Part shown: positions 24,047-40,980 of the stretch, piece by piece | Layout: the number at the start of each line of letters is the position of its first letter | Numbering within the stretch: the stretch's first letter is position 1 | IMG/VR virus record: IMGVR_UViG_3300011442_000010 | Span: 5,948-69,947 of that record | DNA from: a virus | Lineage: Duplodnaviria > Caudoviricetes | Reading direction: 5' to 3' (one strand) | Length of the DNA: 64,000 nt | Notes under the pieces: model-generated | Databases searched by the model: none | What the model saw: the letters and a program-made list of their open reading frames with translations, nothing else | What the model was told of the DNA's origin: nothing | Translations under genes and position numbers: made by a program

Positions 24047-24508
24047 TCATAAATGAATCTCACTCAAAACTACCGTATGCTTCGTTCTTGGATTGAGAAA
24101 CTTCAACAAATGGCTCCATCTGTTCGTGTTTAGAATACACCGTTCTGGAACATTTGTATCTACGAACGTACACAGCATCATGCCGTAACCCAGTTCGCGA
24201 GCCAACTCTATCCGAAGTTGATTCAATAAACTTCCTATTCCCTGCTTTTGCCATTCAGGCATGACCTTAGAATGCGTACTTACACAAGCACCTGCACATC
24301 CGGGGAGCTGGTGAATCTCAAACTCTGCAACTTGCGAGAGAGTTTCCCCGCGTTGCCACACCTCATAAAATACAGGAGGCATCTTCGAGTAATACGCGAC
24401 TCCTGTCCTCTTATAGAGCGCCCAACGTGGAAATCTTTGGTTTAACTCTTCCGCAATGGCTTTTGGAATTTTAGCCGAATCTTGTATCATACCCCAAGCT
24501 CCCCCCAC
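24047..24508 (-). CDS. GNAT-like acyltransferase, CCG family copy 1
   Basis: QLPGCAG...WQKQGIGSLL (QxxGxG loop)...NPRTKH. Confidence 0.75.
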   Translation of the reverse strand: MGGAWGMIQDSAKIPKAIAEELNQRFPRWALYKRTGVAYYSKMPPVFYEVWQRGETLSQVAEFEIHQLPGCAGACVSTHSKVMPEWQKQGIGSLLNQLRIELARELGYGMMLCTFVDTNVPERCILNTNRWSHLLKFLNPRTKHTVVLSEIHL

Positions 24509-25485
24509 TTCTCCTTAAAATCCACATCCGGGTCAAACTGCAACCCCTTCACGCTATGATCTGCCAACAACCTCTCACACGCGCGGCGAGCATTACTGTC
24601 CTTCGCCTTGAAATACCCAAAGAACCTCTCAAGATTCCCCCACGCATTACCCGTGGTCTGTAGCGTCTCCAACGCCGTAGCGGGTGATACCGCTGCGAGC
24701 TTCGCCCCAGTGAGGCAGATATACGCTACCTTGGGATGAAACAACCAACTCGCCATAGTGCGGTATTCCATTCTGGTGCGTTGGCCCTCGCGCTCTCCTC
24801 CAGCAGTGCGAACGTCGCCGAATTGGCCATAACCGTTTCTCCTCGCCGTGGGATCATTCCTCCGCGTCTGGCACTCCCGACTAGGGAGGATGTCGAGGTG
24901 TTCGAGTTGCCGTGTTATGCGATCCAGCGCCTCCACCCTCTGCTCATGAGCCGCGGGATCACCTCCGTGGTCTCCCGGGGGCATATCGAGATGAACGTGC
25001 CCGCCCAGCGTCAATAGTCTCTGCCCCTGCGCATCCGCCAATCCATCCCCCGCCCTCACCCTCGCCCTAAGCGCCGCGCCCGCTCTCCACTTGTGCCCTT
25101 TGATCTCCGCCAGAGTTTTATTCCCCAAAATCTCCCTCTGAAGTCTCTTCACCACCGCATACGTCCCATGCGCGGGCTCAGGGCGAATCTCCACCACATG
25201 CCCATTGTGATCCCATCCCACCACGCCCCGTTGTCCCATCACTCCCGCGACGTTGAAGATGCTCCCATCCTTCGCCACCACCACAAATTCCGGATCACAC
25301 CCCACCAACCAGGTGTTTACTAGTCTCGCCGCCATAACAGTCTCATCCTCCAACGGAGGGAGGTTTCTCTCCCGCTCCCGTGCTTGTTGCTCCAAGAAAT
25401 CCCTATACTCCCCCATCGCGGAGTGATACCGCTCGGGGTTCCGTGCAATCGCGATGTCCCAAAATTCATTCCCTGGGCCTGGCAT
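24487..25485 (-). CDS. phiEco32-like COOH-NH2 ligase type 2, paralogue A
   Basis: VGCDPEF, EIRPEP, GGHVH, GYGQFGDVR, MEYRTMASW; likely start ATG 25485 (GGAG SD), ORF track start 25587. Confidence 0.9.
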   Translation of the reverse strand: MPGPGNEFWDIAIARNPERYHSAMGEYRDFLEQQARERERNLPPLEDETVMAARLVNTWLVGCDPEFVVVAKDGSIFNVAGVMGQRGVVGWDHNGHVVEIRPEPAHGTYAVVKRLQREILGNKTLAEIKGHKWRAGAALRARVRAGDGLADAQGQRLLTLGGHVHLDMPPGDHGGDPAAHEQRVEALDRITRQLEHLDILPSRECQTRRNDPTARRNGYGQFGDVRTAGGEREGQRTRMEYRTMASWLFHPKVAYICLTGAKLAAVSPATALETLQTTGNAWGNLERFFGYFKAKDSNARRACERLLADHSVKGLQFDPDVDFKEKWGELGV

Positions 25486-25495
25486 CCATTCTCTC

Positions 25496-25702
25496 CTAAG
25501 CGCACCCGGCCCAACAAACCGGGCCGCTTTCAATATGATCTCCACAGTGGTTACAAAATCCAACCCCGCACTTGCAAGAGGATACATCGGTGGATTTGCA
25601 ATCTGGGCATCTTGGCTCTGAGTGCCACCAGCCCCTAAACCACCAATGGTGGATTGGAGGATAGATCTTCCAGTTCCATAACCGAAGTAGATGTAGCTTC
25701 AT
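25496..25702 (-). CDS. Small Trp/Cys-rich protein
   Basis: ATGA overlap; CPDC...CKC...CNHC. Confidence 0.45.
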   Translation of the reverse strand: MKLHLLRLWNWKIYPPIHHWWFRGWWHSEPRCPDCKSTDVSSCKCGVGFCNHCGDHIESGPVCWAGCA

Positions 25703-25887
25703 TGTTTCCTCACAATAATCCTTCCACAAAAACTCCTCCCGGGGTGGCTAGATTCGATATGGGCATGTAGCTGTCCCATGCTCTCGCCCTCCCACCCGCA
25801 CCAAACACACCCTACCCGAGTGCTGCTTGGATTTTTCGCTTTATCCTGTGCCACCGACCTCTTACGCCAGAAAGAGATAATCCCCAT
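25699..25887 (-). CDS. Small C2H2 zinc-finger protein
   Basis: CVWCGWEGESMGQLHAHIESSH = C-x2-C-x12-H-x4-H. Confidence 0.6.
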   Translation of the reverse strand: MGIISFWRKRSVAQDKAKNPSSTRVGCVWCGWEGESMGQLHAHIESSHPGRSFCGRIIVRKQ

Positions 25888-26387
25888 TTCGCTGCCACCT
25901 CTGCATCGCGCAGGGAGTGGAGCATATCATCCATGAAGTCGCGTTCACCGGGAGTCAGCACATTCCACGCCTTGCGAAATGCAGTATCGGTGGAGGATTG
26001 AGAGAACTCACAGTAGAGATCAAGCACTTCCTTGGTGCTTAAGGATACAAACTTCTCCTTCTCTCTCGTCTCCCTCGCCCCATGAGCCTTACACACGTTT
26101 AGCACAATCCGGTGAAACCAGGTGGAGAACCTACTCCTCCCTTGAAACTTCTCCAAACTCCCCCACGCCCTCATCAGCGCCTCATTCACCACATCGGGCC
26201 TGCGATGCCCAAACACACTACTGGTTATGGCGTAGGCGTGAGATTCCATAGCTTTGAGAAGCATGTTATCCAGAGTAACATGACTTACTCCCCCCAACAC
26301 TCCCACAGTTTCTATGAAGAGCTTCCACGATTTATCGAGCCTATCCCCCGGGCGATCTCCAATCACCCTCGTGTGTTTGTTATTCAC
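25812..26387 (-). CDS. ECF-like RNA polymerase sigma factor
   Basis: GTG 26387 with GGAGG SD; region 2 DVVNEALMRAWGSLEKFQGRSRFSTWFHRIVLN; region 4 LTPGERD...EVAAKWGLSLSGVRGRWHRIKRKI. Confidence 0.9.
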   Translation of the reverse strand: MNNKHTRVIGDRPGDRLDKSWKLFIETVGVLGGVSHVTLDNMLLKAMESHAYAITSSVFGHRRPDVVNEALMRAWGSLEKFQGRSRFSTWFHRIVLNVCKAHGARETREKEKFVSLSTKEVLDLYCEFSQSSTDTAFRKAWNVLTPGERDFMDDMLHSLRDAEVAAKWGLSLSGVRGRWHRIKRKIQAALG

Positions 26388-26704
26388 CAATTCCTCCCCA
26401 TCGCGCCACAACAGTAGACACACTGCGTATCATCGTTCTTGTTCATACACCCCTTGCAGAATAGTTGGTTGCACCCTCGACAGTTGACCTCCCCTGGTTC
26501 CTGACAGGAAGAACATAACCTCGCGGCCTTCACCCCCGGCTTTGCCTCCGTGAGATCTCCCTTAAGGCACTCCGGACACGCCAGATAATTCTTCCCATCC
26601 ATCCTCACGCGCTTGAGCTCCGCGGGGAGAATCTGCGTTTGGCAGAGGAGGCAAAACAGCCCCGGGACTTCCCCTCGACGAGTGAGGTTCCTAACGCTCT
26701 GCAC
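26384..26704 (-). CDS. Cys-rich zinc-finger protein
   Basis: Multiple CxxC pairs (CLLC, CPEC, CSSC, CRGC, CKGC, CVYC). Confidence 0.6.
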   Translation of the reverse strand: MQSVRNLTRRGEVPGLFCLLCQTQILPAELKRVRMDGKNYLACPECLKGDLTEAKPGVKAARLCSSCQEPGEVNCRGCNQLFCKGCMNKNDDTQCVYCCGAMGRNW

Positions 26705-27134
26705 GGGGAACCTCCTGGCCTATGTCTCTCCAACCGGGTGTCTCTGCATCCACAAAAAGCCCGTTTCGGAAAGTTCCTGTTCTAAATCGTATCTGATGGC
26801 CTTCCTGCACAGGAAGTGGTGCAGTTCTTCTTCCTCCTCTTGCTACCCTACGCGCCATCTCTTCTCCTGTTGCGGTAGGCCGCGCAACTACCACCCTTCT
26901 CCTCCTCCCCCTCTTCTCCCTCCAAATCTTCAACTTCGCCTCTTGGGGCCAATCCGGGACACTCTCCACAATCTTAACAAGCTGCTGCCACATAGGGAGT
27001 CCAGCCAGACCTTTTGGGGTAAAATATCTCCCCGTGTTCTGTCGATAAAGGCTTGCCGCTAACCCAATCGCCTGACGAAGAGTAGCATATCTCATCCCTC
27101 CGAAGTTCAGGCTAACCCTAACTCTACTACTCAC
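26691..27134 (-). CDS. Hypothetical basic protein
   Basis: 147 aa ORF packed in operon. Confidence 0.55.
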   Translation of the reverse strand: MSSRVRVSLNFGGMRYATLRQAIGLAASLYRQNTGRYFTPKGLAGLPMWQQLVKIVESVPDWPQEAKLKIWREKRGRRRRVVVARPTATGEEMARRVARGGRRTAPLPVQEGHQIRFRTGTFRNGLFVDAETPGWRDIGQEVPRAER

Positions 27135-27867
27135 TCTTCTCCCCCTTTCTCCCCGGACACCCTTTCTCCACCCACCGAGTTATATGTTTCGCAAGTAGCT
27201 GAATACACTGTCTTCCCTCACCTTCAACTCCGGGAGCGGAGTTCGACTCCAGCACATAATACTCCCCATCCCTTCCGTGGATAATGTCAACCGCCCCAAA
27301 GTCAAGCCCCAAAGCTCCAATCGCCTTGCAAGCGACTGCCACTGCTTCCCGCGGAACGTTCTCTGCATGGACAAGTTCAAAGGCATATCCATTTCCATGG
27401 TTTCGTCCCACCATTCCTGGCCGCTTTGGAGCGTGCCGGAGAACCTTCTCATACGTACCAAGATGAGAGTTTCGATATACCCAGACTCGATACTCCCGAT
27501 CGCTATCAATGAATCTTGTGAAGAAATCACGTCGTTGGCTCCAGAATGCTACCGCCCGAAGTGTGCCACATAACCTGATATCAGTCCCGCCACGGTGATT
27601 AAAGCGCCGAGCCAGGACAGGAAGTGGGAGTTTAACCCCAATAGTAGAACCACTGCGCCAATACTGGGGCACCAAGATGCCAGCTTTAGCCAACCTTTCC
27701 AGCTCCTCATACTTATTTCCTCCCCCAGCCATCGCATTCAACACATTCTTCTGGGGACTCAACCTCACCCCATAGCTCACCGTGGCGTCTCCGGATACTC
27801 CCGAGAGCATACTCTGGAGAAGTTGTCCGGTGAGTCTACTTCCGCGAGCTACTATTACTCTAATCAT
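27127..27867 (-). CDS. ATP-grasp amide ligase (phiEco32/RimK-like)
   Basis: NKY...L..AGILVP, HRGGTDI, EYRVWV, RNHGNG, LDFGAVDII, VLESNSAPG. Confidence 0.9.
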   Translation of the reverse strand: MIRVIVARGSRLTGQLLQSMLSGVSGDATVSYGVRLSPQKNVLNAMAGGGNKYEELERLAKAGILVPQYWRSGSTIGVKLPLPVLARRFNHRGGTDIRLCGTLRAVAFWSQRRDFFTRFIDSDREYRVWVYRNSHLGTYEKVLRHAPKRPGMVGRNHGNGYAFELVHAENVPREAVAVACKAIGALGLDFGAVDIIHGRDGEYYVLESNSAPGVEGEGRQCIQLLAKHITRWVEKGCPGRKGEKSE

Positions 27868-28100
27868 ATACCCCTGACCTCCCCTAACGCATCAGGCGCG
27901 AGGAGTACCCAGCTCCCTTGTGGCGGGTTCTCTTGTCTCACCTCTTTGATCTCCCAATCCGGCCAGTTCTTCTTGCAGAAGTCCTCCGCGCCTTTGCCTT
28001 GTGCTGCCAAGACGTAGATATGTTCGGTGAGGTCTCGATAGATTAGGGCGCTTTTTACCCGCTTTTCTATCCTTACAGTCCAGTTTCTTCCTTGTTGCAT
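27864..28100 (-). CDS. Hypothetical protein
   Basis: 78 aa, start overlaps GATase stop. Confidence 0.55.
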   Translation of the reverse strand: MQQGRNWTVRIEKRVKSALIYRDLTEHIYVLAAQGKGAEDFCKKNWPDWEIKEVRQENPPQGSWVLLAPDALGEVRGI

Positions 28101-29140
28101 CAGTTCCCCCTCTCCCCCAGCAACCTCTTACAATGCCCACACTCGATCTCCCAAAGCTCCAACTTCTTCAACTCTCCGTCGATGATATTGCGCCCCTTAC
28201 AACTCGGCGCAGGACAAACCACCACATCAGGTTGCTCCACCACGGGAGCAGTTGCTGTCTCCAGCTTCTTCTCCTCCCTCCCCTGCTTCACCGTCTCCTT
28301 ATTCCTGTCCTGCCTCCGCTCCCTCTGCTTCCTCTCCCAATCCCGGTGGATGTTATACTGCACTTGGCTTCTCACTCCTCCTGCCGCCGAGAACCCATCC
28401 GCAAACTGCACCCCTTCGCTGGTGATGATAAACGCGCTTTCCTTCTCCACGGTGTTGAATTTGAGATCCATCCGGTTGGCTTTGAACGGGAATCCCCACT
28501 TCTTCACCCACACCCGGGAGGCGGCATGTATCGCTTCCTTCTCACTCGCCCACATAAGTTGGTTGTTGTGTTCCAGCATGGCGATCACGAGCGGAGAGCC
28601 GCTCCTCGCAAGTAGCAGAGTATCCGGCTGCTTCGGAGTCACCGCTGCAATCGCAGCACTCCCTCCGAGCTTATTCAACACCCTGATCCCCTCCTTCGTC
28701 AAGCCCTCCGCATCCAAGATGGCGCGGATAATATCCGTATCCACCTCCGCCTTGCGCTCCAACTTCAGGTCGTCGAAGAGCCACCGATGGTTATGGATCA
28801 TCCCATTATGGGTAACCGCCACTCCCCCTGCATAAACCGGGTGGTTGTTTTCGTTCTTATCGGGACTTCCAAGGGTAGCCAATCGGGTATGGAGCAACAC
28901 CGTCATGGTGTCCTCGCCCAAATGCTCCTCCAAAAACCTCGCAAACACCCTATCGCTAAGGATCTTCCACGCGATCTCCGGGCCTTTGCAAACCCTCACA
29001 CTCCCATCCCGCTTCTGCACCGCGATGCCCGTGGCATCCCCGCCACGGTGTTGAATCTTGATGAGCAGTGTTCTCACCTGTGTAACATCAATGGGAGCAC
29101 TGTCTTCTCCCATTCGCTTCAATCCCGCAATGCCGCAGAT
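28100..29140 (-). CDS. Class II (Ntn) glutamine amidotransferase
   Basis: Frame reads ATC-TGC-GGC-ATT-GCG-GGA (x-C-G-I-A-G) from 29140; HRGGDATG, HTRLAT, NNHP, HNGMIHN, VDTD; needs ATC start to keep Cys1. Confidence 0.9.
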   Translation of the reverse strand: MCGIAGLKRMGEDSAPIDVTQVRTLLIKIQHRGGDATGIAVQKRDGSVRVCKGPEIAWKILSDRVFARFLEEHLGEDTMTVLLHTRLATLGSPDKNENNHPVYAGGVAVTHNGMIHNHRWLFDDLKLERKAEVDTDIIRAILDAEGLTKEGIRVLNKLGGSAAIAAVTPKQPDTLLLARSGSPLVIAMLEHNNQLMWASEKEAIHAASRVWVKKWGFPFKANRMDLKFNTVEKESAFIITSEGVQFADGFSAAGGVRSQVQYNIHRDWERKQRERRQDRNKETVKQGREEKKLETATAPVVEQPDVVVCPAPSCKGRNIIDGELKKLELWEIECGHCKRLLGERGN

Positions 29141-29172
29141 ATAGCTACCCTCTTCTCTCGGACAAACCGAGG

Positions 29173-30549
29173 TTACTGCTGAATTTGACTACCCTTCTCG
29201 AACAAAACCTTCCGCCCATCGTTCTGGGGTTCCCTCACCCTCCCCGCCATCACATCCTCCAACTTCCATACCCCGATGCTTCCATCACAGAGAAGCTCCT
29301 TGAAGACGGAGAGTTTACGCTTCAGGGCATAACTGCTGAGAACGAAGTTATAGGAGGGCTTCGACTTCACCTTCAACCCCAGCCTCGCGATCTTCACTCT
29401 TTGTCTCTGCGCCCACCAAGTTGGGGCTTCCATCTCGGATTCATGAAGCCTCGCGGCCACCACGTTAGAGTGTTCCCCTATATGCAGCGTCCCCCTAAAC
29501 ACCATCGGAACCATTCCAACGGGTTTCCAACCCTTGGGGATCTCCACCATGAGGCTCTCATATCCCCCAATCACTGGAATGGGAGTATTCTCCACCAACG
29601 CCGCCCAGATCTTCGCCTGAATTCCCTTGGGAGCCTCCGCCGCTACCACTCCAATTCCCTTCCGCTCCACCTTGGGGAGAAACGTGATCCCCCAAGCAGT
29701 GTTCATCCCACGCGGTTTCTTCGGAAGCCCGTGCCTTCGAATCATCTCCCAGCAAAGCTCCGCATCATCGTCTAGGCCACGAAAGTAGGCAAGGAACATC
29801 TTGATTCTGTGAGTAGCATATTCCGGGGAATCCCCATTGGTGCGGTTGAGCATAATCAAATCCGGCCTCACCACCGCTAACTTCGTCAACGTCAACACCA
29901 ACATCGCCTGAGCGGGAGACTCCACAAAGCTCGGGAACCCCCTATACTCCCATCCCCAACTCTGCTTCTTCCAATCCCCCAGCAACCCCACCGGAGCCAT
30001 AGGCCAGGTATTCCGTAGCTTCTGCTCCTCCCGGCTAAACACCCCCGCAGAGATCAACAACTCCATAACCTCATCCAGCGCCACAACTTCCCGTAGGCGG
30101 TTCTCCGTTCGCAATCGGGCAAACCCCACTCTCCCACTCAGCGGAAATCCCTCCTTCAACCACCCACCACTCTCCCAAGAGTAGGCTCCGGAATGGGTAC
30201 TCAACACATCCGCTCCCTGCAACCCAAACGCTAGATTCCCCACCACCTCCAACACTCTCCTACTCCCTTTGGCCGTAACCATCACCGAGCGGGTAGCTTG
30301 ATGGAGCCGGGCAAATCCCCCGAGAACCGTCGCGCTTGCTCTCAGCTCCCCCTCTCTCCTCGCCCCCACCATCACCCTCGCGCCGATGGTGAAACGATTA
30401 ACCAACCGGGGAATCTCCCGATACCTCACCCTCCACTGCCTCTCCAATCCCTTCACCCATTCGTTGGAAATCGGCCCGGTGGCTACACTTCTCCCCTGCC
30501 GGACGCTCTCTTCCACTATTCTGCGCTTGATGTCTCGGAATTCTGCCAT
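29173..30549 (-). CDS. Degenerate COOH-NH2 ligase type 2, paralogue B
   Basis: ATG 30549 with GGAG SD; keeps GLLGDWKKQSWGWEYRGFPSF..SP..A.LVLTLTKLAV but FTIGARV replaces GxDPE and SGRVGF replaces GGHxH. Confidence 0.7.
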   Translation of the reverse strand: MAEFRDIKRRIVEESVRQGRSVATGPISNEWVKGLERQWRVRYREIPRLVNRFTIGARVMVGARREGELRASATVLGGFARLHQATRSVMVTAKGSRRVLEVVGNLAFGLQGADVLSTHSGAYSWESGGWLKEGFPLSGRVGFARLRTENRLREVVALDEVMELLISAGVFSREEQKLRNTWPMAPVGLLGDWKKQSWGWEYRGFPSFVESPAQAMLVLTLTKLAVVRPDLIMLNRTNGDSPEYATHRIKMFLAYFRGLDDDAELCWEMIRRHGLPKKPRGMNTAWGITFLPKVERKGIGVVAAEAPKGIQAKIWAALVENTPIPVIGGYESLMVEIPKGWKPVGMVPMVFRGTLHIGEHSNVVAARLHESEMEAPTWWAQRQRVKIARLGLKVKSKPSYNFVLSSYALKRKLSVFKELLCDGSIGVWKLEDVMAGRVREPQNDGRKVLFEKGSQIQQ

Positions 30550-30550
30550 G

Positions 30551-31378
30551 TTACTCCACCACCCATCTATCCATCCATGCATGTCTCCGCCGAGGTTGAG
30601 GCGCTTCCTGCTCCACTTGCTGCCTCGCTCGACGCAATCTCTCTTGTTCCAACACCAACATCGCTGGCCAAGTGGTGGTAGCTGTTTGTTGAGGTTGCGT
30701 AGGTGGCGGTGTTTGGGCTTGTTGGTGAAGCTCTTGTGCTATTTCAACTTGTCGAGGCGTTACAGGCCACGCAAAGTCAGGAGCGGTAGCCGCTCTTACC
30801 TCCATATCTCCATAATCCGCCCACTGCGTTGGAGCTGCTTTTTTCTTCTTCTGCGGCTGCTGGCCTACCACATTCACCCTTCGCCGGTAGTCCGTGATGT
30901 AGATCGCCCCAATCTCCGGACTCACCCCATACACCCTCGCGTTCGCCCCCAGCGCACAATCAATCCTATGCACCCAAACTCCACCCCTCATCCACGCCGT
31001 CGCAGCCGCACGAAGGTCATGCCACGGGTGATACACCGTCCAGAGCCAGGGAGAAACCACTTGAAGTGGGATGCTGGTAACCTGCCCTCTTCTGGTGGGT
31101 TGATCCCATCCAAGAATAGTCTTCGCCACCATCCACGCTCGATCCCACTCCATAACCGCCAGAAGCCTTATTCCTCCCCTATCCGCTTCCTTCTCAAACC
31201 TCTTCGCCGCAATCGCATTGGGCTTCCCCACATATCTCCAAATCCCATGCTCTCCCCCTCTCTCCCACTCCACCATCATCCTCACCCGGGTGGGATACTT
31301 CCCCGGAAACGGAGCGGGAATCGCAAAATCCCCCGCCTTCGGAAGCTTCATCGCCCTTGTCATGCTAAGTCGTAGCAT
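30551..31378 (-). CDS. Hypothetical protein
   Basis: 275 aa, Gln/Pro/Thr-rich C-terminal linker. Confidence 0.6.
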   Translation of the reverse strand: MLRLSMTRAMKLPKAGDFAIPAPFPGKYPTRVRMMVEWERGGEHGIWRYVGKPNAIAAKRFEKEADRGGIRLLAVMEWDRAWMVAKTILGWDQPTRRGQVTSIPLQVVSPWLWTVYHPWHDLRAAATAWMRGGVWVHRIDCALGANARVYGVSPEIGAIYITDYRRRVNVVGQQPQKKKKAAPTQWADYGDMEVRAATAPDFAWPVTPRQVEIAQELHQQAQTPPPTQPQQTATTTWPAMLVLEQERLRRARQQVEQEAPQPRRRHAWMDRWVVE

Positions 31379-32090
31379 TATTATTCATCCTCTCCCAGGT
31401 CTCCTTCGCACTGCGGAGTCTCCCCTGCATCTCCGGGGTGTTGGTCTTCGCCATTGCCTCAAACAGTAGCGGATAGGTCGGGTCATCAAACATCCAACGA
31501 TGTTGGCATTCTGTGGAGCACAACGGCACCCCCCACTTCCCCCCGGTGCATTTCTTCTCACAAACCACACACTTCTTCTGCGCCAGGAGATATCCGTATG
31601 CCGCGGTCAAATGCACACTACATTTGTAGCGATCCATGTGAACCTTCATCCTCACCGCCCGCAGGCTCTCACACACCACCCAACGACAGGCTCTGCACCT
31701 GGCCCACTGGCTTACCGCCAACTCCCCTCCCTGCCAGAAGCGGTATTCCTCTACCTGGAGATTCCCCTCTCCGGAGAAGTCCAGGCGCTTTGGAGGAGTA
31801 ACATCCCGTTGCCACATCTTCTGCTTCCTCACCGGCCCATAGATCGCATGCTGCTCCCACTCCCCTTTGATACGTGATGGCGCAGTCCACACCTTCTTCC
31901 CGCGCTTGAGCAGCGGCCAGCGAGTGCCATCAGGCATCACGCTTTGCATGAGGAGCTTTATTGGGGGGTGGAATTTTTCTTCTGCCATACCCATATCCAG
32001 TGATTTAGAACCATCTTCAAGTCCCAAATCGCAGTTGCGATGCGCCCGAAGTTGATTGCAGCAACTAATGCGATTACCGCATAAAGCCAT
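31365..32090 (-). CDS. Hypothetical protein with Cys-rich zinc motifs
   Basis: CRAC...C...H..C..H and CVVC...PLCSTEC; true start probably downstream of 32090. Confidence 0.55.
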   Translation of the reverse strand: MALCGNRISCCNQLRAHRNCDLGLEDGSKSLDMGMAEEKFHPPIKLLMQSVMPDGTRWPLLKRGKKVWTAPSRIKGEWEQHAIYGPVRKQKMWQRDVTPPKRLDFSGEGNLQVEEYRFWQGGELAVSQWARCRACRWVVCESLRAVRMKVHMDRYKCSVHLTAAYGYLLAQKKCVVCEKKCTGGKWGVPLCSTECQHRWMFDDPTYPLLFEAMAKTNTPEMQGRLRSAKETWERMNNNATT

Positions 32091-32185
32091 TGCAACACGT
32101 CGAATTGTAGTTTCACTTCCATATCTTCATGCCCCACTCCCCACATACAAACACCCACTCGGAACCACCGCGCGCTTCCAAACAT
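31958..32185 (-). CDS. Small membrane protein
   Basis: Hydrophobic WLYAVIALVAAINF segment. Confidence 0.4.
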   Translation of the reverse strand: MFGSARWFRVGVCMWGVGHEDMEVKLQFDVLQWLYAVIALVAAINFGRIATAIWDLKMVLNHWIWVWQKKNSTPQ

Positions 32186-32492
32186 ATGCCGTTACGGGGA
32201 ATTCCGTACTGTCCCGATGCCCAAAACTGGTAAATCCCACCTCTTCCCTCATAAACCCTCCCTGCTCACCCCCACTCAACCTATCCACCCCCATAATCAC
32301 CTCCGGGGGAACTACCCAGAGTTCCCCAAACACCCGAGAGGCTCCGGGTTTGATGAGGTGAAAATCCCCCTGCCGGTACAAATCCATATTCCACACACAC
32401 CCTCGGGTGATAAACGTCGCGCCCCAGTTATAGAGGAGGGGGTTGAAGCGTTTCCCTCGTGTGAGACTCCCGTAGACGAATAGCTTTTCCAC
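32127..32492 (-). CDS. Gamma-glutamylcyclotransferase (AIG2-like) family protein
   Basis: LFVYGSL..G, VFGELW, DRLSG (for DxLEG), AYVW. Confidence 0.85.
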   Translation of the reverse strand: MEKLFVYGSLTRGKRFNPLLYNWGATFITRGCVWNMDLYRQGDFHLIKPGASRVFGELWVVPPEVIMGVDRLSGGEQGGFMREEVGFTSFGHRDSTEFPVTAYVWKRAVVPSGCLYVGSGA

Positions 32493-32493
32493 C

Positions 32494-33071: not shown

Positions 33072-33605
33072 TCAGGCGTTAGTTTCCGTCCGAGAGCGGC
33101 TGGATGAAGATCCCCTCCCATGAGTACTCCTTTTCGTCTGAGACTTCTTCCCCGCTGGTTGGCGGGAAACTTGCGATGCCATCTTCTTCAGGTGAGCGGC
33201 ATTCACTTTCTTGGCCGCTGCCCATACTGCCTTACACCAAGGGCAAAGAACCTGTTTTTCTTCAACGTCCGGGTTGCAGGTACACCCCGGCTTCTCCTGC
33301 TTCATATTCCCCTTCGCCCCTGCGAGAGGCTTCCAGTTTCTCCCGCGCGCCCAAAGATGGAGCTGGGTATTTCCATTCCCCGTAAACTCCAACACCTGCT
33401 CAAACCCCCGGCTCTCCAATGCCTTCACCACGGATTTGTTATTGTGTTGGGTTGGACTGGTAATCGCCACGGTAAAGTAGTGAAACTCCGTCTCCGCGGG
33501 CATGTTGGAAGCTTTTTGCTGCTCCGTGGCTCCCGCTTGATCTCCATATAGTCCCGTTAAAATCTGCGCCCCACAACACGCGGGGAACCCTTGCAACTGC
33601 GCCAT
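33072..33605 (-). CDS. GNAT-like protein, CCG family copy 2 (lacks QxxGxG loop)
   Basis: QGFPACCGAQIL...ALESRGFEQVLEF...LHLWAR. Confidence 0.6.
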   Translation of the reverse strand: MAQLQGFPACCGAQILTGLYGDQAGATEQQKASNMPAETEFHYFTVAITSPTQHNNKSVVKALESRGFEQVLEFTGNGNTQLHLWARGRNWKPLAGAKGNMKQEKPGCTCNPDVEEKQVLCPWCKAVWAAAKKVNAAHLKKMASQVSRQPAGKKSQTKRSTHGRGSSSSRSRTETNA

Positions 33606-33625: not shown

Positions 33626-34258
33626 TTATAGGGCTATTGTCAAATCCTTCTGCCCGGTAACCACCATATTTCCACTCCGCCTATTTCTCCACTCCTCCAC
33701 CACCTTCCACCCACTCCTATCCCAGAGCTTCTTCTCCGCAGTCATGGAGGGGAGAATCAACGTCCCCATCAACCGAGTATATCCTGCCTCCCTCGCGATC
33801 TTCTCCTTCAACTCCATCACCAACGCGCCGATCCCCTTCTTCTGCCACTCACTCCTCACCATCGTGGTGTAGCTCAACAGCAACCCGCAGCACGAGGGAA
33901 ACTGGGTGAGGTTGAACTGCGCGATATTTCCACTCAAGTAGAAACTCTCCCCTCCTGGAGCTATATGTCTCAAACACCTCCCTTGCTCCGGCTGGGTACT
34001 CTTCAACGCTTCTTCTTCCTTCATGAGGTAGAAACCCGCTCCCATGGGATAGTAGCTTGTAACAAAAGCCGGGTGCGCCTTCGCCCTATTATACGCCTCC
34101 AACGTATCCCCCCACCCCTCCACCAACGTCACCTTCCCTCCCACGATCTTCTCCAACCTCTCCCGGCCTTCCTGCCACCCATCCCACACGGATTTGGCCT
34201 TCGAGGGGTACGGAAATGTATCATATGTCCTTGCCATCTCTTCTTCTCTCCTCCCCAA
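33626..34258 (-). CDS. GNAT-like acyltransferase, CCG family copy 3
   Basis: TQFPSCCG...WQKKGIGALV...AREAGYTRL...RNRRSGN. Confidence 0.75.
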   Translation of the reverse strand: MGRREEEMARTYDTFPYPSKAKSVWDGWQEGRERLEKIVGGKVTLVEGWGDTLEAYNRAKAHPAFVTSYYPMGAGFYLMKEEEALKSTQPEQGRCLRHIAPGGESFYLSGNIAQFNLTQFPSCCGLLLSYTTMVRSEWQKKGIGALVMELKEKIAREAGYTRLMGTLILPSMTAEKKLWDRSGWKVVEEWRNRRSGNMVVTGQKDLTIAL

Positions 34259-34365: not shown

Positions 34366-34737
34366 CTACCGCGTGTTCTTCTTCATCAACAACGCGATCT
34401 GGTGTCCGTGGTGTTCTCCTGGGAACCGCGTGATCTCGGAGAAACCCAGGGCCAGCAACGCCGCCAACGCCTTACTCTGGCTCTGCACATCCACCGTGGC
34501 GAGGGTGACTTTTCCCGCCTCGCCGATGTGGTTCTGCGCGGCTTGCTTCGTGGGCTTGCCGTCTTCGCTGAGATCATTGTCGTAAGGGAAGTCGCTCAAC
34601 ACTTCCACCCCACAACATCCGGGGAAATCCTTATCAATCTGCACCGCGGAGATGTCGTTCTCATCCCCCACAATAGCCCGGAAATCCACCGCCGTTGTGG
34701 GAGTTCTCCGTGCCGTAGTCCTTCGTCTCGTAGCCAT
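34366..34737 (-). CDS. GNAT-like protein, CCG family copy 4
   Basis: KDFPGCCGVEVL...ALLALGFSEITRF...GHQIALLMK; Arg/Thr-rich N-terminal tail. Confidence 0.6.
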   Translation of the reverse strand: MATRRRTTARRTPTTAVDFRAIVGDENDISAVQIDKDFPGCCGVEVLSDFPYDNDLSEDGKPTKQAAQNHIGEAGKVTLATVDVQSQSKALAALLALGFSEITRFPGEHHGHQIALLMKKNTR

Positions 34738-34783
34738 ATAGGCCCTCCTGTTAAAATTAAACTTGTGTTACCTCTGCTCCCCG

Positions 34784-35221
34784 CTACTTCCCAAACAACT
34801 CCAAAATCTTCTGAAGCGCGAAGTATTCAGGGTTCACGAATCGCATAAGCGCATCGCTGAGATTCGCGAAGAACCCAATCGTAGTACCAATCAACGCGAG
34901 GAAGCTAAAAACGGTACTAAAACCCGCCCCATCGTCGTTCCAATTGCACTCTTTCACAGCCGCGTAAGACTTCTTAAACCACCACAACGCGACGAGGAAG
35001 AGCGCCCCAAAGCAGAGTGCCCAGATTAGCCACTGCACCCCCTCCGCAATTCCCTGTCTCACCAACACCCCCCACAAATGCCCCGCGGCCACCCCCAGCT
35101 TCTCACTCAACGCATCGAGCCGTTTGAAAATCTCCGCTTTCCAATCCGTATCGAAAAGCACCGCCATGATATAGTTCATCATGAACATTCCAAGTAGTTT
35201 CATCTGCAACATATTACACAC
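34784..35221 (-). CDS. Phage membrane protein
   Basis: LDALSEKLGVAAGHLWGVLVRQ followed by two TM helices and NPEY. Confidence 0.65.
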   Translation of the reverse strand: MCNMLQMKLLGMFMMNYIMAVLFDTDWKAEIFKRLDALSEKLGVAAGHLWGVLVRQGIAEGVQWLIWALCFGALFLVALWWFKKSYAAVKECNWNDDGAGFSTVFSFLALIGTTIGFFANLSDALMRFVNPEYFALQKILELFGK

Positions 35222-35501
35222 TCCTCACTTCCCAATCCGTCCCACTCCAAATATGCCGGTAGTTGTGCCGCTTATGCCAACCCCTCCACGGGAGTTTCCC
35301 CCACCTCGGAGCCAAGTACCTCCACCCGGGAAGGCTGGAGTGGATCTCGGGAGAAGGCTTCGCGTGTCTTATCGCTCTGTCTCTTGCCCACGCTCCCCAC
35401 AACAACCACAGGTCTAGCAAGACCAGCGCAATCAGCAAGAACCAAATACCTCTTCCCTTCCTCATGATTCCTCCTCGCCACACTCCGCATATCCGCGTCA
35501 A
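35214..35501 (-). CDS. Small membrane-anchored protein
   Basis: WFLLIALVLLDLWLLWG TM segment. Confidence 0.45.
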   Translation of the reverse strand: MTRICGVWRGGIMRKGRGIWFLLIALVLLDLWLLWGAWARDRAIRHAKPSPEIHSSLPGWRYLAPRWGKLPWRGWHKRHNYRHIWSGTDWEVRSV

Positions 35502-35548
35502 AACTAAAAGTCATCACCTCTGGCCCACTCCCAAGGGCATCGAGCCCG

Positions 35549-35662
35549 CTACTTGCCGCGCTTTTCTAAACGATCCACTCGCGCACTCAATTTTAAAACG
35601 GCCGAGCTGAGACTATTTATCGCAGAAGTTAATGCTTCTATCATCTTCAACACTTCTTTCAT
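35549..35662 (-). CDS. 37-aa coiled-coil peptide (not in ORF track)
   Basis: GGAG SD; MKEVLKMIEALTSAINSLSSAVLKLSARVDRLEKRGK with heptad periodicity. Confidence 0.55.
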   Translation of the reverse strand: MKEVLKMIEALTSAINSLSSAVLKLSARVDRLEKRGK

Positions 35663-36198
35663 TGCTTCTCCTTTTTTCTTCTAACGCATCAGAGGAAGAA
35701 GCGAGGTCTCCATCATGGAGCCTCTACTCCCTCCCCCTCTGCTATCTTCCCCCATCCCACCATCGAAAGGCGTATCCCTACCAGTTACTCTGTAGCAGAA
35801 CATATCCATAGATAACCGCGCTTGTTTTAAATCGGAAGGCCCGAAGATGGAATCCCATGGTTGCCCACGTTCAACCTCGAAGAAGTCTAAGATGGAGTAT
35901 CGGGCCGAAACCTTCCACTCCGCTCCAGATCATAGACGCAACCTCGCGGAAGCATCTCCCTGGCAATCTCTCTTCTTCTCTTCTCCTCTACCTCACCCAC
36001 AGAGGCGCGATTGTTTCTCTAGCACACTCTCTACACCAGAATTCAAACCCCGGATATGTGAACAAGAAGCAAAGGATGTTACTCCTCCACTCCCCGCAGG
36101 CCCACACGGGCCAACCACCCTCTCCAAAGTTCCTCCCGGTTGTGTGTCGCCTTTATAGCGGTTTGGGGGAAGAATCCCCAAAACTTCCTGCCCACCCC

Positions 36199-36462
36199 CT
36201 AGGTGGTAATAATCACTTGTGTTCCTTCTGGGAGAACGCGGTAATCACTCCCCCCGAAGTTTTTGGCATTATGGACGCTGTGATATCCTTTAGACAAACC
36301 GAAAGCCGAATCAACCCCTGTTTTATAATACAGGACGTGCTCGTCTGTTCCAATTTGAAATACCCGTAGCAAGGGAATGTCTGCAAATGGCACACCCCGC
36401 GATACCGGATCACGTTTTACTTCTATCTTCAATCCCCACCTCCCATCCAGCCTTCGCTCCAA
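36199..36462 (-). CDS. Hypothetical protein
   Basis: 87 aa ORF. Confidence 0.5.
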   Translation of the reverse strand: MERRLDGRWGLKIEVKRDPVSRGVPFADIPLLRVFQIGTDEHVLYYKTGVDSAFGLSKGYHSVHNAKNFGGSDYRVLPEGTQVIITT

Positions 36463-36794
36463 CCCCCTATGACTGGAAATCTTCTAAAATCTCTCACATT
36501 AATCGCCCCTCCCTGATACCCACTCCACGTCCAAACCTTCTCCCCTCGAACTTCCTTCCTCTTCTCCAGATGCTCCCTGCATTCCTTCTTCCCACAGCAA
36601 AATATCCCCGCTTCTTCCACCCACCCGTACTCATCAAACCTCCTCGGCCTCCCACACCTACACGGCTCCAACGCCACCATCTTCAGCCCAAAGCAGAGTT
36701 GGCATACTCCATCCTGCTTCCGGAGTCTGGGATTCACCTCCACCCCATATCCCTCACACGCGGGACACACCGCGAACCTTTCACTGGACGCCAT
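36429..36794 (-). CDS. Zinc-finger protein with CxxCxGxG-like repeats
   Basis: CPACEGYG...CQLCFGLK...CRCG...CCGKKEC. Confidence 0.55.
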   Translation of the reverse strand: MASSERFAVCPACEGYGVEVNPRLRKQDGVCQLCFGLKMVALEPCRCGRPRRFDEYGWVEEAGIFCCGKKECREHLEKRKEVRGEKVWTWSGYQGGAINVRDFRRFPVIGGWSEGWMGGGD

Positions 36795-38169
36795 AACTAT
36801 AGTTCCCCCAGGTGCATTTAGGAGAACCGGAGTGCTCTACCCAAATCTCCCCCATCCTCCAATTCTTCTCCACCTCACTCCAACTCGGAACCACCGCCCC
36901 CAACCCTTCCATAATCATCTTCATCCCCAACTTCGCCCCACTCACTCCCCAACACGTCTGCATAATGGTGTTGAACTGCTTCTCATTACGCTGAACATAC
37001 TCCCTCGCCCCCTGCACATCCCCATACTGAATAGTCTGAATCACCTCCTGCTCACACCCATCCATCACGCCCCTCAATCTCTCCCTCCCCATCGTAAGGC
37101 TCTTCCGAGTAAGCCCCAAAACGAAGTGTGCCACCGCAGGATGACACATCCAACCGTTGGAGAGGACACGGTACTCTACCCCGTGGGAGGGTAAGCGGTG
37201 TTCTCCGGGAAGTCCATAGTAGCGCCTCCTCACCGGATTATCCACCTCCGCGAAAATCCCCACACTCGCCATCCCCACAATCGCATCGGCGCACTTCACC
37301 ATCTCCCGGGCATCCTCGGGATTGAGGGTTCCGATTCCGTAGTGATAATGGCCTCCCGCAAACCTCACTCCAAGCTCCCGAGGGTTCTCCACCGGCATTC
37401 CCATCAACCCATACGCATTCACACTCGGCTTACACCCCAACTCCACAAACTCCTGCTTCGCCCCCATCAGCATCTCCTGGGGAATTTCCACCACCGTCTT
37501 GGCCGATAGCCTGCTCCCCGGATACTGCTTCGTGGTTTTCTTCCAGAGACTCTCCAATCCCTCCCGGATACTATCTACCTGATACGCGAGGCAGGTATCC
37601 GCCTGTGTAGCGATCTCCGCCTGGAATCCATCCCAGTAGCAGAAGCCTCCGATGCGAAGGGGGGAGGGCTGTTGTGCGCCTCCGTTCCATATCTGGAGCT
37701 TCCTCTCCTTCGCCGCTATGTCCTTATGTGGCAAAAACTCCCACGCTGGAATCACCCCACCTTCCTTGCTCTCCACAAATATCTCGGGATCACTCCCAGA
37801 GAACGCCCCGCCAGTGCCCATGTTCTGGAGCGCCCCCAGCAGGTTTTTCCTCTGCCAGTTCGCTACGCTCGCACGGAGTTCCTGCGCCACATCTCCGGAT
37901 ACCCTCTTAAACTTCACATCCTTCGGAACATAGAGCCAGTTCTCTCTCCACTGCCCAGGGCCAACTTCCGCTCGAAGGTAGAGGTAATCATGCCCCACCC
38001 TCCCATAAACATCCGGCGTGGCTCTCAACGCCTCCACCTTCCCACTGGCGTTGGGATAGTAGCGTTTGAGCCAATCCCCAAGCTCTACTTCTGCCCACTC
38101 CCTCAATGGGAGTCCTGCTTGTTGTGTCTCCACTGTTCTCCTCCTGCATCGTGCGGGAAGGGAGAACAT
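36781..38169 (-). CDS. phiEco32-like COOH-NH2 ligase type 2, paralogue C
   Basis: GSDPEIF, WDGFQAE, LGCKPSVNAY, RFAGGHYH, RRRYYG..GEHR...HGVEYRVLSN.W. Confidence 0.9.
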   Translation of the reverse strand: MFSLPARCRRRTVETQQAGLPLREWAEVELGDWLKRYYPNASGKVEALRATPDVYGRVGHDYLYLRAEVGPGQWRENWLYVPKDVKFKRVSGDVAQELRASVANWQRKNLLGALQNMGTGGAFSGSDPEIFVESKEGGVIPAWEFLPHKDIAAKERKLQIWNGGAQQPSPLRIGGFCYWDGFQAEIATQADTCLAYQVDSIREGLESLWKKTTKQYPGSRLSAKTVVEIPQEMLMGAKQEFVELGCKPSVNAYGLMGMPVENPRELGVRFAGGHYHYGIGTLNPEDAREMVKCADAIVGMASVGIFAEVDNPVRRRYYGLPGEHRLPSHGVEYRVLSNGWMCHPAVAHFVLGLTRKSLTMGRERLRGVMDGCEQEVIQTIQYGDVQGAREYVQRNEKQFNTIMQTCWGVSGAKLGMKMIMEGLGAVVPSWSEVEKNWRMGEIWVEHSGSPKCTWGNYSYGVQ

Positions 38170-38247
38170 ATTACCGGATACTAACGATTCTTACAAGCTC
38201 AACAACAATCAAACAGCCAATTACAATCAGTAAAATTATAGCTCCTA

Positions 38248-39396
38248 TCACACTCTCCCCCCTTCCCACCCCTTCTTCTGCTCCATTCTCCCCTTCACCA
38301 CCGCCCAAACTCTCTCCTCCGGATCTCTCCCGTACATCATATCCGCTAGGATGGGGCGAAGCTCCGTTTTGCTCATAGTAAGCCTCAGCATCTGATCCCA
38401 AACCTTATCTCTCCCCTGCGCAGTGTCCAACCTTCTCCACACCGCCTTCGCGTCTATCTCCACATCCCAAGCATCTCTCCGCAGCATCGAGCATTGTCCG
38501 CGAATCCACGCCCGGAAACCCTCCGGCAGCTCATCCCCCTCCAACGGCCCAAGCTCCGCACCCTGTCTCAGTAGATCACACAACCCCGAGGGAGTCACAG
38601 TGCGGAGGAGATTCCGGAGTTTCTCATACCCCTCATCACGAAGAATTACCCGAAACGGAGGCTCTCCCTTCCTCACCCACCTCAACACCCACCCTCTTCC
38701 CCTACACTCCATCCCGGAGAGTTCCCCGATCTCCTTCACCTTCACCCTCGGCACCGGCAGCATATCATTCCACCCACACCACTGTTGCATAGTGTCGTAG
38801 GAGAGTTCGCTCCCATCACTCTTCCGGACAAGAGCCACCACATAAATCTGCTCCTCCGTATAGCTTCTCACCCTTCTCCATCTATCCCCCACCACCTGTA
38901 CCACCGGGGTAACTCCCCCAGGCCAAGTCGCCTCCTTCTCCCGGGTTCTCATCCTATGGCTCCCCCACCCAATCGCGGGAGAGACGAATCCGTAGCGGTT
39001 GGCCAGCGCGGGCTTCCCATCACTCCCTTCATACACCACACACTGCTCTCCATCCAGCATCTCGGTGATTTCCGGCATCTCCGAGGAGAAATTCTCCACC
39101 TTCGTCTCCGGAAGTCCCTTCGTATCCTCCTGAAAAAACTTCCCCCATGGCCTAGCGATGATCTTCCCTTCCCTCGCCACGATCCCCCTGCACGTCATCG
39201 TTTCCCTGTCCCACAACCTCTCCCTCGCGCATTTCTCCGTATAGGTGAACAGATGTGTCTTCCCATCCGGATGGCTCACCTGCCGGATATTCCCCTGAGC
39301 GATGTGCCAGACGATCTTCTCCGCGTCAAGGCAATCTCGTATCTCGGGGTTCTCCACCCTCTGGGAGAGATTAAGTTGGATCAGTCCGGATTGCAT
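38248..39396 (-). CDS. T4 RNA ligase 1-like protein with degenerate catalytic motifs
   Basis: LFTY...WD...CRGIV...IIARPWGKFF N-domain; motif I reads EMLDG (K to M). Confidence 0.8.
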   Translation of the reverse strand: MQSGLIQLNLSQRVENPEIRDCLDAEKIVWHIAQGNIRQVSHPDGKTHLFTYTEKCARERLWDRETMTCRGIVAREGKIIARPWGKFFQEDTKGLPETKVENFSSEMPEITEMLDGEQCVVYEGSDGKPALANRYGFVSPAIGWGSHRMRTREKEATWPGGVTPVVQVVGDRWRRVRSYTEEQIYVVALVRKSDGSELSYDTMQQWCGWNDMLPVPRVKVKEIGELSGMECRGRGWVLRWVRKGEPPFRVILRDEGYEKLRNLLRTVTPSGLCDLLRQGAELGPLEGDELPEGFRAWIRGQCSMLRRDAWDVEIDAKAVWRRLDTAQGRDKVWDQMLRLTMSKTELRPILADMMYGRDPEERVWAVVKGRMEQKKGWEGGRV

Positions 39397-39635
39397 TAAA
39401 GGGAATACCTCACTCCCGTGATCTCTCCGAAGTTGCCTATTATTCCGGTGCAGAATCCCACCACCAGAGGCATCCCGGGCTTCAGTAGTGGGCGGGTAGC
39501 GAGGATCGCTGCATGTCTCTCCTCCACCCTCCCAAGCGCATCCACACTGGAAAACCTCACCCCCACTACTTCGGAGGAGAATTCATATTGCCGCCCGCCT
39601 TCAACCGTTACTCTCGCTTTCATTTCTGCCCCCAA
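39396..39635 (-). CDS. Hypothetical protein
   Basis: 79 aa, stop overlaps next start. Confidence 0.5.
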   Translation of the reverse strand: MGAEMKARVTVEGGRQYEFSSEVVGVRFSSVDALGRVEERHAAILATRPLLKPGMPLVVGFCTGIIGNFGEITGVRYSL

Positions 39636-39950
39636 AACTCTGCAAGCTCGCTGACAATTCCATTGAATATTACCGGACTTACGCCGTCTATAGCCATTCT
39701 CTTGTTAATAGCTTCGTCTGAATTACAGTTACACTCTCCCTCACAATCACACTCTACTATCCATCTCTTGTAGGGATGGGGGCCATCTATCCAACTCACA
39801 ACCTCTCCTTCACAGCTTCGTAGACTTCACGAAGGATATTAATCTCAGCCTCTGGCACCTTATACATCTTCTCCCCATGCACATACCCAAACGTAGAAGC
39901 TTCCAATATCCGCTCAATCGCCTTCTTTAACTCCAATCTCTTCCGCTCGT

Positions 39951-40250
39951 TCACTCTTCTCTCCTCCTCCCTCTCACCGGAGCCTTGTCTGCGTTGGTAG
40001 CCTCTGGGGGGAGAATCTCCAAATTCTCCGACAATATCCTTCGTTGTTGCTCCTCCTCCACCTCTTCCTCATCCCTCGGAGCCGTTAGAGCCTCCTCCAG
40101 CGCAGTCTTCCACTCCCCCAGTTCCCACACCGGAACTCCTGTGCTTTGGGTGGTCACGACGGCAAACTCCACTAGCTTGAGGAGATCACGGAGCTCCAAC
40201 TCTCCCTCAAACAACACCCCAAACTCCCCTCCCTCAATTACCTGTGCCAT
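39951..40250 (-). CDS. Acidic hypothetical protein
   Basis: 99 aa ORF, operon-packed. Confidence 0.5.
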   Translation of the reverse strand: MAQVIEGGEFGVLFEGELELRDLLKLVEFAVVTTQSTGVPVWELGEWKTALEEALTAPRDEEEVEEEQQRRILSENLEILPPEATNADKAPVRGRRREE

Positions 40251-40509
40251 GGTTATCTACCTCATCCACCTCATCGCAAACCGAGATGTAGGTTTCAAGT
40301 GCAACGCGTAATCTTTCTGCCATTTCATAAGGAATGGTCTTAATGTTCCGACTTTTACGATGTCCAGCCGGTATCCAGTTGTAAATCTCATCCAACACTA
40401 CTTGTGCCATATCCCCATCCACTCCCTTACCCTCGTCCAGAGCCTTTGCCATGTTCCATGACTCCGCTTGTGCCCCGCGAGCGCAAACGAGAAAAACTCC
40501 CTCCCACAA
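40234..40509 (-). CDS. Hypothetical protein
   Basis: 91 aa ORF; true start probably MAKALD. Confidence 0.5.
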   Translation of the reverse strand: MWEGVFLVCARGAQAESWNMAKALDEGKGVDGDMAQVVLDEIYNWIPAGHRKSRNIKTIPYEMAERLRVALETYISVCDEVDEVDNHGTGN

Positions 40510-40512
40510 TGT

Positions 40513-40980
40513 CTACACCTCTTCAGCCCGATAGTCATGATCGCCTCTCACCCTTCCTTGGGGGTTCCACTCTTCTCTCGCACAATGTGCCCACAAATAG
40601 AGTATTTTCTTCCAAGCCCACTGCCAAGGCCGCTTGGTAAGCCTCACAGGTTTCTTCCCCTCGCTCAAATCCCTCACCCAAAGAGTGATCTGGTTCCCTG
40701 TTTTGGGATTGGGGGTGGTAAGCACCGGATAAAACTCATGCGCTTGTAGATGCCGGATGCTTTCCGCGTTGTTCCCCTCGTTGCTGGTAGTAGCAAACGC
40801 AATCCCTGCCATGTGATCCTTTAGCAGAAAGGGAATGGTATCCGCTTGGGAGCGCCCGGATTTCCATTCATGGTGATACCCTCCGTTGCCATCTGGCATC
40901 CACTCCCAATGGCCATTCCCGTCCAAATCCCAAACCTCAATCATCCCACAGCATCCGTGGGTTCGAGTGCTACGTTGCAT
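40513..40980 (-). CDS. GNAT-like protein, CCG family copy 5
   Basis: THGCCGMIEV...AFATTS...HLQAHEFYPVLTTPNPKTGNQITLWVRDL. Confidence 0.6.
   Translation of the reverse strand: MQRSTRTHGCCGMIEVWDLDGNGHWEWMPDGNGGYHHEWKSGRSQADTIPFLLKDHMAGIAFATTSNEGNNAESIRHLQAHEFYPVLTTPNPKTGNQITLWVRDLSEGKKPVRLTKRPWQWAWKKILYLWAHCAREEWNPQGRVRGDHDYRAEEV

Follow-up and report, generated by a model that had tools for sequence, protein, structure and literature searches.

In this study, we analysed five small genes, here called O1 to O5, in a stretch of DNA of 64,000 nucleotides (the window) from a virus of the Caudoviricetes (Duplodnaviria). The window corresponds to bases 5948-69947 of the 69,947-bp IMG/VR virus record IMGVR_UViG_3300011442_000010, which CheckV rates as complete, and it encodes a terminase, a portal, a major head protein, a DNA polymerase and a primase. 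A reading of the letters had pointed to five open reading frames (ORFs) for GNAT-like proteins with a conserved (F)PxCCG-like motif; this original prediction was correct as to the genes themselves, which are all present on the minus strand and carry the motifs quoted for them:

24047..24508, minus strand: O1, long form (A-type), coenzyme A (CoA) loop WQKQGIG, degenerate motif QLPGCAG (PGCAGAC); ORF list, Pfam and profile
33072..33605, minus strand: O2, short form (B-type), motif GFPACCG, no CoA loop; short-form profile E value 1.2e-20
33626..34258, minus strand: O3, long form (A-type), predicted complete GNAT, loop WQKKGIG, motif QFPSCCG; profile and AlphaFold2 (AF2) model
34366..34737, minus strand: O4, short form (B-type), motif DFPGCCG, no CoA loop; profile and AF2 model
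40513..40980, minus strand: O5, short form (B-type), motif THGCCG, no CoA loop; short-form profile E value 2.6e-25

Three of the copies, O2, O3 and O4, sit in tandem, and the Q-x-x-G-x-G loop occurs in O1 and O3 alone, both as first described. The C-terminal pattern that all five were said to share stands as an approximation, since the two G positions are occupied by R and K in O1, and O5 reads E-F there. The probable start of O1 is the ATG at 24490, six codons inside the longest ORF, and this ATG overlaps the TGA of a COOH-NH2 ligase gene (ligase #1) at 24487-24490 (gggGTATGAtac; ATGA), which implies translational coupling of the two genes. The ATG of O2 is preceded by the Shine-Dalgarno sequence AAGGAG, indicating that this protein truly begins six residues before FPACCG. 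For O3 the gene caller places the start at the ATG at 34237, and O5 starts 8 residues before GCCG and ends in a Trp-rich basic tail. The C-terminal half of O2 contains a CxC-x13-CxxC knuckle (PGCTCNP...LCPWCK), within 33072-33300, followed by a basic Ser-rich tail; the knuckle cysteines are kept in one relative (P0012) and not in a second one (P0005).

Homology and age of the five copies

Pairwise relatedness was assessed by comparing Smith-Waterman scores with those of 300 shuffles. The long forms O1 and O3 gave a z of 25 (BLASTP E value 9e-17), and among the short forms z was 9.8 for O2 and O4, 3.7 for O2 and O5 and 3.2 for O4 and O5, so that the copies form two sets, O1/O3 and O2/O4/O5, weakly joined by a best cross-set z of 2.8. 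A hidden Markov model (HMM) of the short forms was then built from O2, O4, O5 and 95 distant relatives, leaving out O1 and O3, and compared with all stop-to-stop ORFs of the window. It recovered O3 (E value 3.5e-7) and O1 (7.8e-6) together with O5, O4 and O2, and apart from the five copies none of these ORFs had an E value below 0.5. Alignment of the long-form profile with a non-overlapping short-form alignment in hhalign gave a probability of 99.6% (E value 2.7e-24) over 89 columns. The CCG tripeptide as such occurs 10 times in the six-frame ORFs, and the extended context [FLH][PG]xC[CA]G is limited to four of the five genes, THGCCG of O5 lying outside the pattern. Recovery of exactly these five proteins by a profile that contains neither O1 nor O3, together with the hhalign result, bears out the claim that the five are related and that their common CCG is not coincidental; judged from sequence profiles, O1 to O5 are true homologues and constitute a single family.

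The original prediction saw in the five copies a paralogue expansion of a kind that often marks an arms race with host targets. Identity between the window copies is 18-32%, whereas the best identity to relatives in other metagenomes is 83% for O3, 72% for O2, 56% for O5, 44% for O1 and 40% for O4. As every copy is nearer to relatives elsewhere than to the other copies of its own genome, the paralogues are old and not the result of a recent burst, and the arms-race interpretation was rejected on these grounds. The identities point instead to anciently diverged paralogues and to old subfunctionalisation.

A GNAT fold in predicted complete and in truncated forms

The AF2 model of O4, computed with a 98-row alignment, had a predicted local distance difference test (pLDDT) score of 85 and a predicted template modelling (pTM) score of 0.76. 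It consists of a short strand, beta4 (immediately after the CCG), a helix, beta5, a second helix and a beta hairpin, and these elements match the beta3/4-alpha3-beta5-alpha4-beta6-beta7 part of GNAT proteins with a short beta3 remnant kept. The best 50 rows of a Foldseek search of the PDB with this model were all GNAT acetyltransferases (probability ~1.0, E values 2e-3 to 2e-2), and a Foldseek-independent VIA alignment gave Z up to 8.8 with a root-mean-square deviation of 2.6 A over 94 residues; residues 23-123 of the model align to residues ~55-165 of GNATs, that is, from beta3/beta4 to the C-terminus. ESM Atlas feature matches for O4 were below 0.9 and are taken as leads only. The AF2 model of O3 had a pLDDT of 78.5 overall and above 88 from residue 111 onward, and its N-terminal arm region shows helices and strands before beta3 with a pLDDT of 40-60 in places. 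Foldseek returned 422 PDB matches for it at E<=1e-3, and the best 50 listed were all GNAT acetyltransferases, aligned over ~150-225 columns. The common GNAT-like fold that had been proposed is thus what the models predict for O3 and O4, with O1, O2 and O5 assigned to it through profiles.

For the long forms, the best PDB matches of the profile were phosphinothricin acetyltransferase 1yr0 (E value 7.7e-6), 4mbu (9e-6) and PA4866 (4.4e-5), and the matches to enzymes of this type span beta4-beta6 only. Eight of 25 long-form relatives match Acetyltransf_1 (PF00583) at E<=0.01, the best at 7.3e-6, while the commonest family match is NCBIfam ArsN1a (NF040503), found in five of the 25 with E values of at least 3e-4 and absent from O3 itself. 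The nearest relatives of O1 and O3 appear to be the phosphinothricin/arsinothricin-type amino-acid N-acetyltransferases. With GNATs of the phosphinothricin, arsinothricin and YncA type (1yr0, 2bl1/PA4866, 5jtf ArsN), which are the top sequence matches of the long forms and among the top fold matches of the O3 and O4 models, the long forms have in common the Q/R-x-x-G-x-G loop and motif B ('N..A...L...GF'). Features peculiar to the phage family, in contrast, are the (F)PxCCG turn and the NPxTGN hairpin, and in three of the five phage copies both the N-terminal half and the CoA loop are missing.

O2, O5 and most relatives begin at the motif, with beta1-alpha1-alpha2-beta2-beta3 absent, and starts only 6-8 residues before the motif mean that O2 and O5 cannot carry the N-terminal arm. 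In O2, O4 and O5 an acidic linker of variable length takes the place of the Q-x-x-G-x-G loop, and the loose pattern [QRKH]xxGx[GASK] was found within 35 residues after the Cys motif in 6 of 96 motif-bearing relatives. What the short forms keep is the CCG turn, the ATT..Q segment where beta5 ends and alpha4 starts, and the beta6-beta7 hairpin with NPxTGN ('N.xTGN..TLW'), so the Cys persists while the CoA loop is gone. In the profile alignment the Cys pair falls in the beta3-beta4 turn, ~5 residues before the column of the conserved beta4 Glu of PA4866. By the usual GNAT topology, the Cys turn, ATT..Q and NPxTGN would all be situated on the acceptor side, with the Cys turn at the beta4 end that faces away from the pyrophosphate loop.

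Acetyltransf_CG proteins (PF14542; Arabidopsis At1g77540) are minimal GNATs in which a Gly and a Cys are conserved and CoA binding is kept, and for which an acetyl-Cys intermediate has been proposed. The phage proteins are similar in their small size and in the conserved Gly and Cys, but the short forms, unlike the CoA-binding Acetyltransf_CG proteins, have no CoA loop. Membership in Acetyltransf_CG was rejected, with a score of 15.7 bits for O1 (cut-off 30) and none of 123 relatives matching at E<=0.01.

The family beyond the window

An hmmsearch with a profile of the O2/O4/O5 core against 1.84 billion representatives yielded 98 proteins at E<=1e-3. They are mostly 90-140 residues long and share the C-terminal signature 'ATT..SQ..AI.ALK..GF..V..F.NP.TGN.VTLW', and all but two of the 98 have CC[GA], its median position being residue 11, so the Cys motif is conserved among distant relatives. 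The second Cys is the sole invariant column of one alignment (A3), the first Cys is lost in two relatives (P0003 and P0006), and O1 has lost the second. A word-indexed search with the long-form alignment added 17 further proteins of 138-194 residues, nearly all of which have FPGCCG together with a loop of the canonical form (R/H/K)xKG(I/Y)G.

Existing classifications hardly touch the family. No Pfam family covers the short forms, and the sole PHROG that touches the motif is phrog_8299 (function not assigned there), which O2 matches at positions 4-40 of 137 only (E value 0.007) and which is matched by 3 of the 98 relatives (best E value 2.5e-6). The names of sequence-cluster members were uninformative, consisting of one 'hypothetical protein' only. 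Membership in the Pfam CCG Cys-rich domain (PF02754, HdrB-like) was rejected, with a match in one of the 98 relatives at E 0.0033 and in none of the window copies; two contigs of metagenome-assembled genomes found in a genome-contig scan were likewise not counted as members, being matched at the N-terminal motif only with an HMM E value of ~4e-3. Searches of 50,697 phage records by tblastn with O3, O4, the relative P0045 and ligase #1 gave no match, and none was found when IMG/VR was searched for related loci with O3 or O4 singly. The family is apparently restricted to phages. It also seems to be new to annotation, as members are recorded as 'hypothetical protein' in current entries, those of cultured phages included, and have no Pfam model, the contents of Iyer et al. 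(2009) not having been compared.

Linkage to the amidoligase cassette

The five genes belong to a minus-strand island at ~23-41 kb of the window, which encodes a peptide deformylase, an extracytoplasmic function (ECF)-like sigma factor and the following enzymes:

24487..25587, minus strand: COOH-NH2 ligase #1 (PF14395, 64.7 bits), putatively coupled in translation to O1
27127..27867, minus strand: RimK-like ATP-grasp ligase (PF08443, 20.4 bits, just under the cut-off of 21)
28100..29122, minus strand: glutamine amidotransferase with GATase_6/7 matches (PF13522, 60.2 bits)
29173..30582, minus strand: COOH-NH2 ligase #2 (PF14395, 38.1 bits)
32127..32492, minus strand: AIG2-like gamma-glutamyl cyclotransferase (GGCT; PF06094, 36 bits), two genes downstream of O2
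36781..38169, minus strand: COOH-NH2 ligase #3 (PF14395, 34 bits; phrog_3815, E value 2.7e-23)

The cassette of the phiEco32 type consists of COOH-NH2 ligase (PF14395), Amidoligase_2, ATP-grasp, GATase-II and GGCT, of which the window has three PF14395 ligases, the ATP-grasp, the GATase and the GGCT. The cassette, which is found in phages of the phiEco32, LUZ24 and Zobellviridae types, was predicted in 2009 to modify the cell surface (cell-wall receptors) or to make a peptide-like product (Iyer et al., as cited in PMC11318856), and according to PMC4431377 COOH-NH2 ligases had already been seen to share operons with ligase domains of the GNAT superfamily. No report of an experimentally defined product of the cassette was found in the literature searched. 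Between the ligases of the island lie small Cys-rich ORFs (26384-26704, 31365-32090 and 36429-36794), one of which has a sub-threshold match to a B-box-like zinc finger (22.2 bits against a cut-off of 27) and the others no family; a 382-residue ORF between ligase #3 and O5 (38248-39396) had no match at E<=0.01 in a Pfam search.

Contigs of IMG/VR and of JGI metagenomes were searched by the family motifs alone, blind to neighbouring genes, and nine member-bearing contigs were obtained. In six of them (G002, G003, G004, G007, G008 and L028) a PF14395 match above cut-off lies ~0.2-3 kb from the member; of the remaining three, one has a weak ligase match, and the two without a match are fragments (completeness 24% and 62%). 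For a rough comparison with the background, ligase #3 matches only 304 of the 50,697 phage records by tblastn. The member of G008 occupies 21301-21624 with a ligase frame from 21833, and in G004 there are ligases on either side of the member. In L028, a 55-kb JGI metagenome contig, the order over 3202-15449 is GATase, RimK-like ATP-grasp, COOH-NH2 ligase, a 285-residue ORF and the CCG member, beyond which come a PD-(D/E)XK nuclease, two metallophosphatases and, ~4.5 kb on, an ECF sigma factor; this layout repeats that of the window phage. Long and short forms occur together in four of the eight IMG/VR records (G002, G005, G006 and G007).

Among eight cassette-bearing phages checked in GenBank, a member was found in five (PQ867842, ZRK32, phiM6, tf and LUZ24). 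ORF12 of PQ867842 is a member situated between the GATase and an aminotransferase, Poriferisphaera phage ZRK32 has its member in or beside the cassette, and the same holds for gp81 of phiM6, a weak match. In phage tf, tf_13 (YP_006382473; NC_017971 4390-4767) is a member with an HMM E value of 1.1e-7 and the motif FPSVCT, and in LUZ24, gp12 (YP_001671885; NC_010325 4164-4823) is a member with 21.7 bits and the motif FPSCCT. These two proteins are also ranks 1 and 3 of the structural matches of O4 in BFVD, the 125-residue and 219-residue entries there being assigned to them by length. They differ from the window copies in having Thr for Gly after the Cys and in occurring as one copy per genome instead of five, and LUZ24 gp12 has an N-terminal extension of 80 residues. 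The members of cultured phages read CCT, VCT or TCT, so that the second Cys is the constant one, with O1 as the exception. A separate observation in LUZ24 is that gp9, a toxic early protein, interacted with the glutamylpolyamine synthetase SpuB in a yeast two-hybrid assay (PMC4635203), a curious echo of gamma-glutamyl chemistry beside the same cassette.

While the original prediction treated the proteins as free-standing, the six of nine contigs and the cultured phages place them in a recurrent association with COOH-NH2 ligase, ATP-grasp and GATase, as accessories of the amidoligase cassette of the phiEco32/LUZ24 type.

Discussion

Taken jointly, these results may be explained by ancient GNAT-derived phage paralogues of which the long forms are N-acyltransferases and the short forms CoA-independent partners, all in the service of the cassette, and we favour this explanation while giving it about an even chance of being right. 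O1 and O3, as predicted complete GNATs with an intact pyrophosphate loop, most likely bind acetyl-CoA or acyl-CoA, and their acceptor for N-acylation would be either an intermediate of the cassette pathway, amino-acid-like (Glu/Gln-type) or peptide in nature, or a target of that pathway. Their nearest relatives are enzymes that acetylate glutamate analogues at the alpha-amino group. As the short forms have lost the CoA loop and kept the acceptor-side motifs, O2, O4 and O5 most likely no longer use CoA, and they are probably ligand-binding or target-binding partners, or Cys-dependent carriers, that act beside the catalytic copies and the ligases.

Several observations weigh against this explanation. 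Neither long form reaches the Acetyltransf_1 cut-off of 20.7 bits (O1 19.5, O3 17.1), and O2, O4 and O5 do not match that family. In the profile alignment, O3 has a Ser opposite the conserved Glu of the PA4866 strand V-E-H-S-V-Y-V; we take the beta4 Glu to be the general base of the PA4866 clade, and if this is right the catalytic machinery of O3 differs from that of the clade. The second Cys is absent from O1. As to the cassette, service to its pathway is argued from gene linkage, three phages (TC6, SU7 and Slicky01) have the cassette and no detectable member, and in LUZ24 and tf the member lies ~0.6-1 kb upstream of the cassette, at the end of the early genes, and not inside it.

A first alternative proposal is that the short forms are stand-alone early binders of host macromolecules, either nucleic acid or a host protein, for which GNAT serves only as a scaffold. 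They would be decoys, inhibitors or anti-defence factors with no relation to the chemistry of the ligases, and linkage to the ligases would reflect nothing more than shared early/middle timing. Besides the closing of the early-gene block by the member in LUZ24 and tf, the acidic and variable linkers after the CCG strand are consistent with such a role, and so are the basic tails: tails of at least 8 residues are present in 56 relatives, 22 of which have at least 30% Lys/Arg in them, and the tails of O2 and O5 are basic too. However, members are found between or next to ligase genes in PQ867842, G004, G007, G008, L028 and the window, where O1 is moreover coupled to a ligase, and conservation peaks at the would-be active-site side of the GNAT fold rather than in a surface patch. 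When 13 small early genes of LUZ24 were expressed in a screen, growth inhibition was seen for four of them, gp4, gp6, gp9 and gp11 (PMC4635203); gp12 is absent from this list and is thus not known as toxic, the main text of that report being silent on whether it was among the 13. We regard a role as host binder as rather unlikely.

A second proposal, to which we likewise assign a small probability, concerns the Cys itself, which would act before beta4 as a nucleophile or acyl carrier. The long forms would work by a ping-pong mechanism from acyl-CoA, and the short forms would be loaded from an acyl-phosphate made by the neighbouring ligases, with the thiol standing in for CoA or pantetheine. 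Butirosin biosynthesis (BtrI/BtrJ/BtrG), with its logic of acyl carrier protein, ATP-grasp ligase and gamma-glutamyl cyclotransferase, offers an analogy. The near-universal CC[GA] of the relatives (96/98), the second Cys as only invariant column of A3, the retention of the Cys as CCT or VCT in the members of LUZ24, ZRK32, PQ867842 and tf, its survival in the short forms despite the loss of the CoA loop, and the close linkage to acyl-phosphate-forming ligases and a BtrG-like GGCT all agree with thioester chemistry. On the other hand, the beta3-beta4 turn, ~5 residues ahead of the column that holds the PA4866 Glu, is not the classical catalytic position, the second Cys is gone in O1 and the first in P0003 and P0006, and no precedent was found in the literature searched. 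Still less probable, in our judgement, is the specific form of this idea in which the truncated CCG proteins carry acyl groups on a protein thiol, the Cys replacing the thiol of CoA, and are loaded by the COOH-NH2/ATP-grasp ligases; unloading would then be carried out by the full-length CCG-GNATs or by the cyclotransferase.

A site for a metal or an Fe-S cluster formed by the Cys pairs of a dimer, which would make the short forms redox or metal-sensing subunits, is very improbable. Adjacent invariant cysteines, the additional knuckle in O2 and the one relative that grazes the Pfam CCG Cys-rich domain (E 0.0033) would suit such a function, but there are two Cys per core only, O1, P0003, P0006, tf_13 and phiM6 have a single one, and the alignments contain no partner His or Cys column. 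Tailoring of phage DNA by the family and the ligases, in which the GNAT copies would acylate an amino group on a hypermodified base, might account for the basic tails of the short forms and is equally hard to credit, given that no pathway marker enzyme turned up among the scanned island ORFs (no systematic search having been made), that the phage tf record annotates nicks but no modified bases, and that these data contain no link between cassette and DNA.

The family presents a naturally occurring example of the GNAT fold shortened to ~90 residues, a matter of interest to the study of how folds evolve and to the annotation of phage 'dark matter'. If the carrier idea were true, the amidoligase cassette would be an assembly line built on carrier proteins, of a hitherto undescribed type. 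An unannotated family of small proteins with a GNAT-derived fold, one nearly invariant Cys, and both catalytic-looking and CoA-loop-less forms provides a new handle on the cassette, and since members occur in cultured, tractable phages (LUZ24 gp12 and tf_13), the link to the cassette can be tested.

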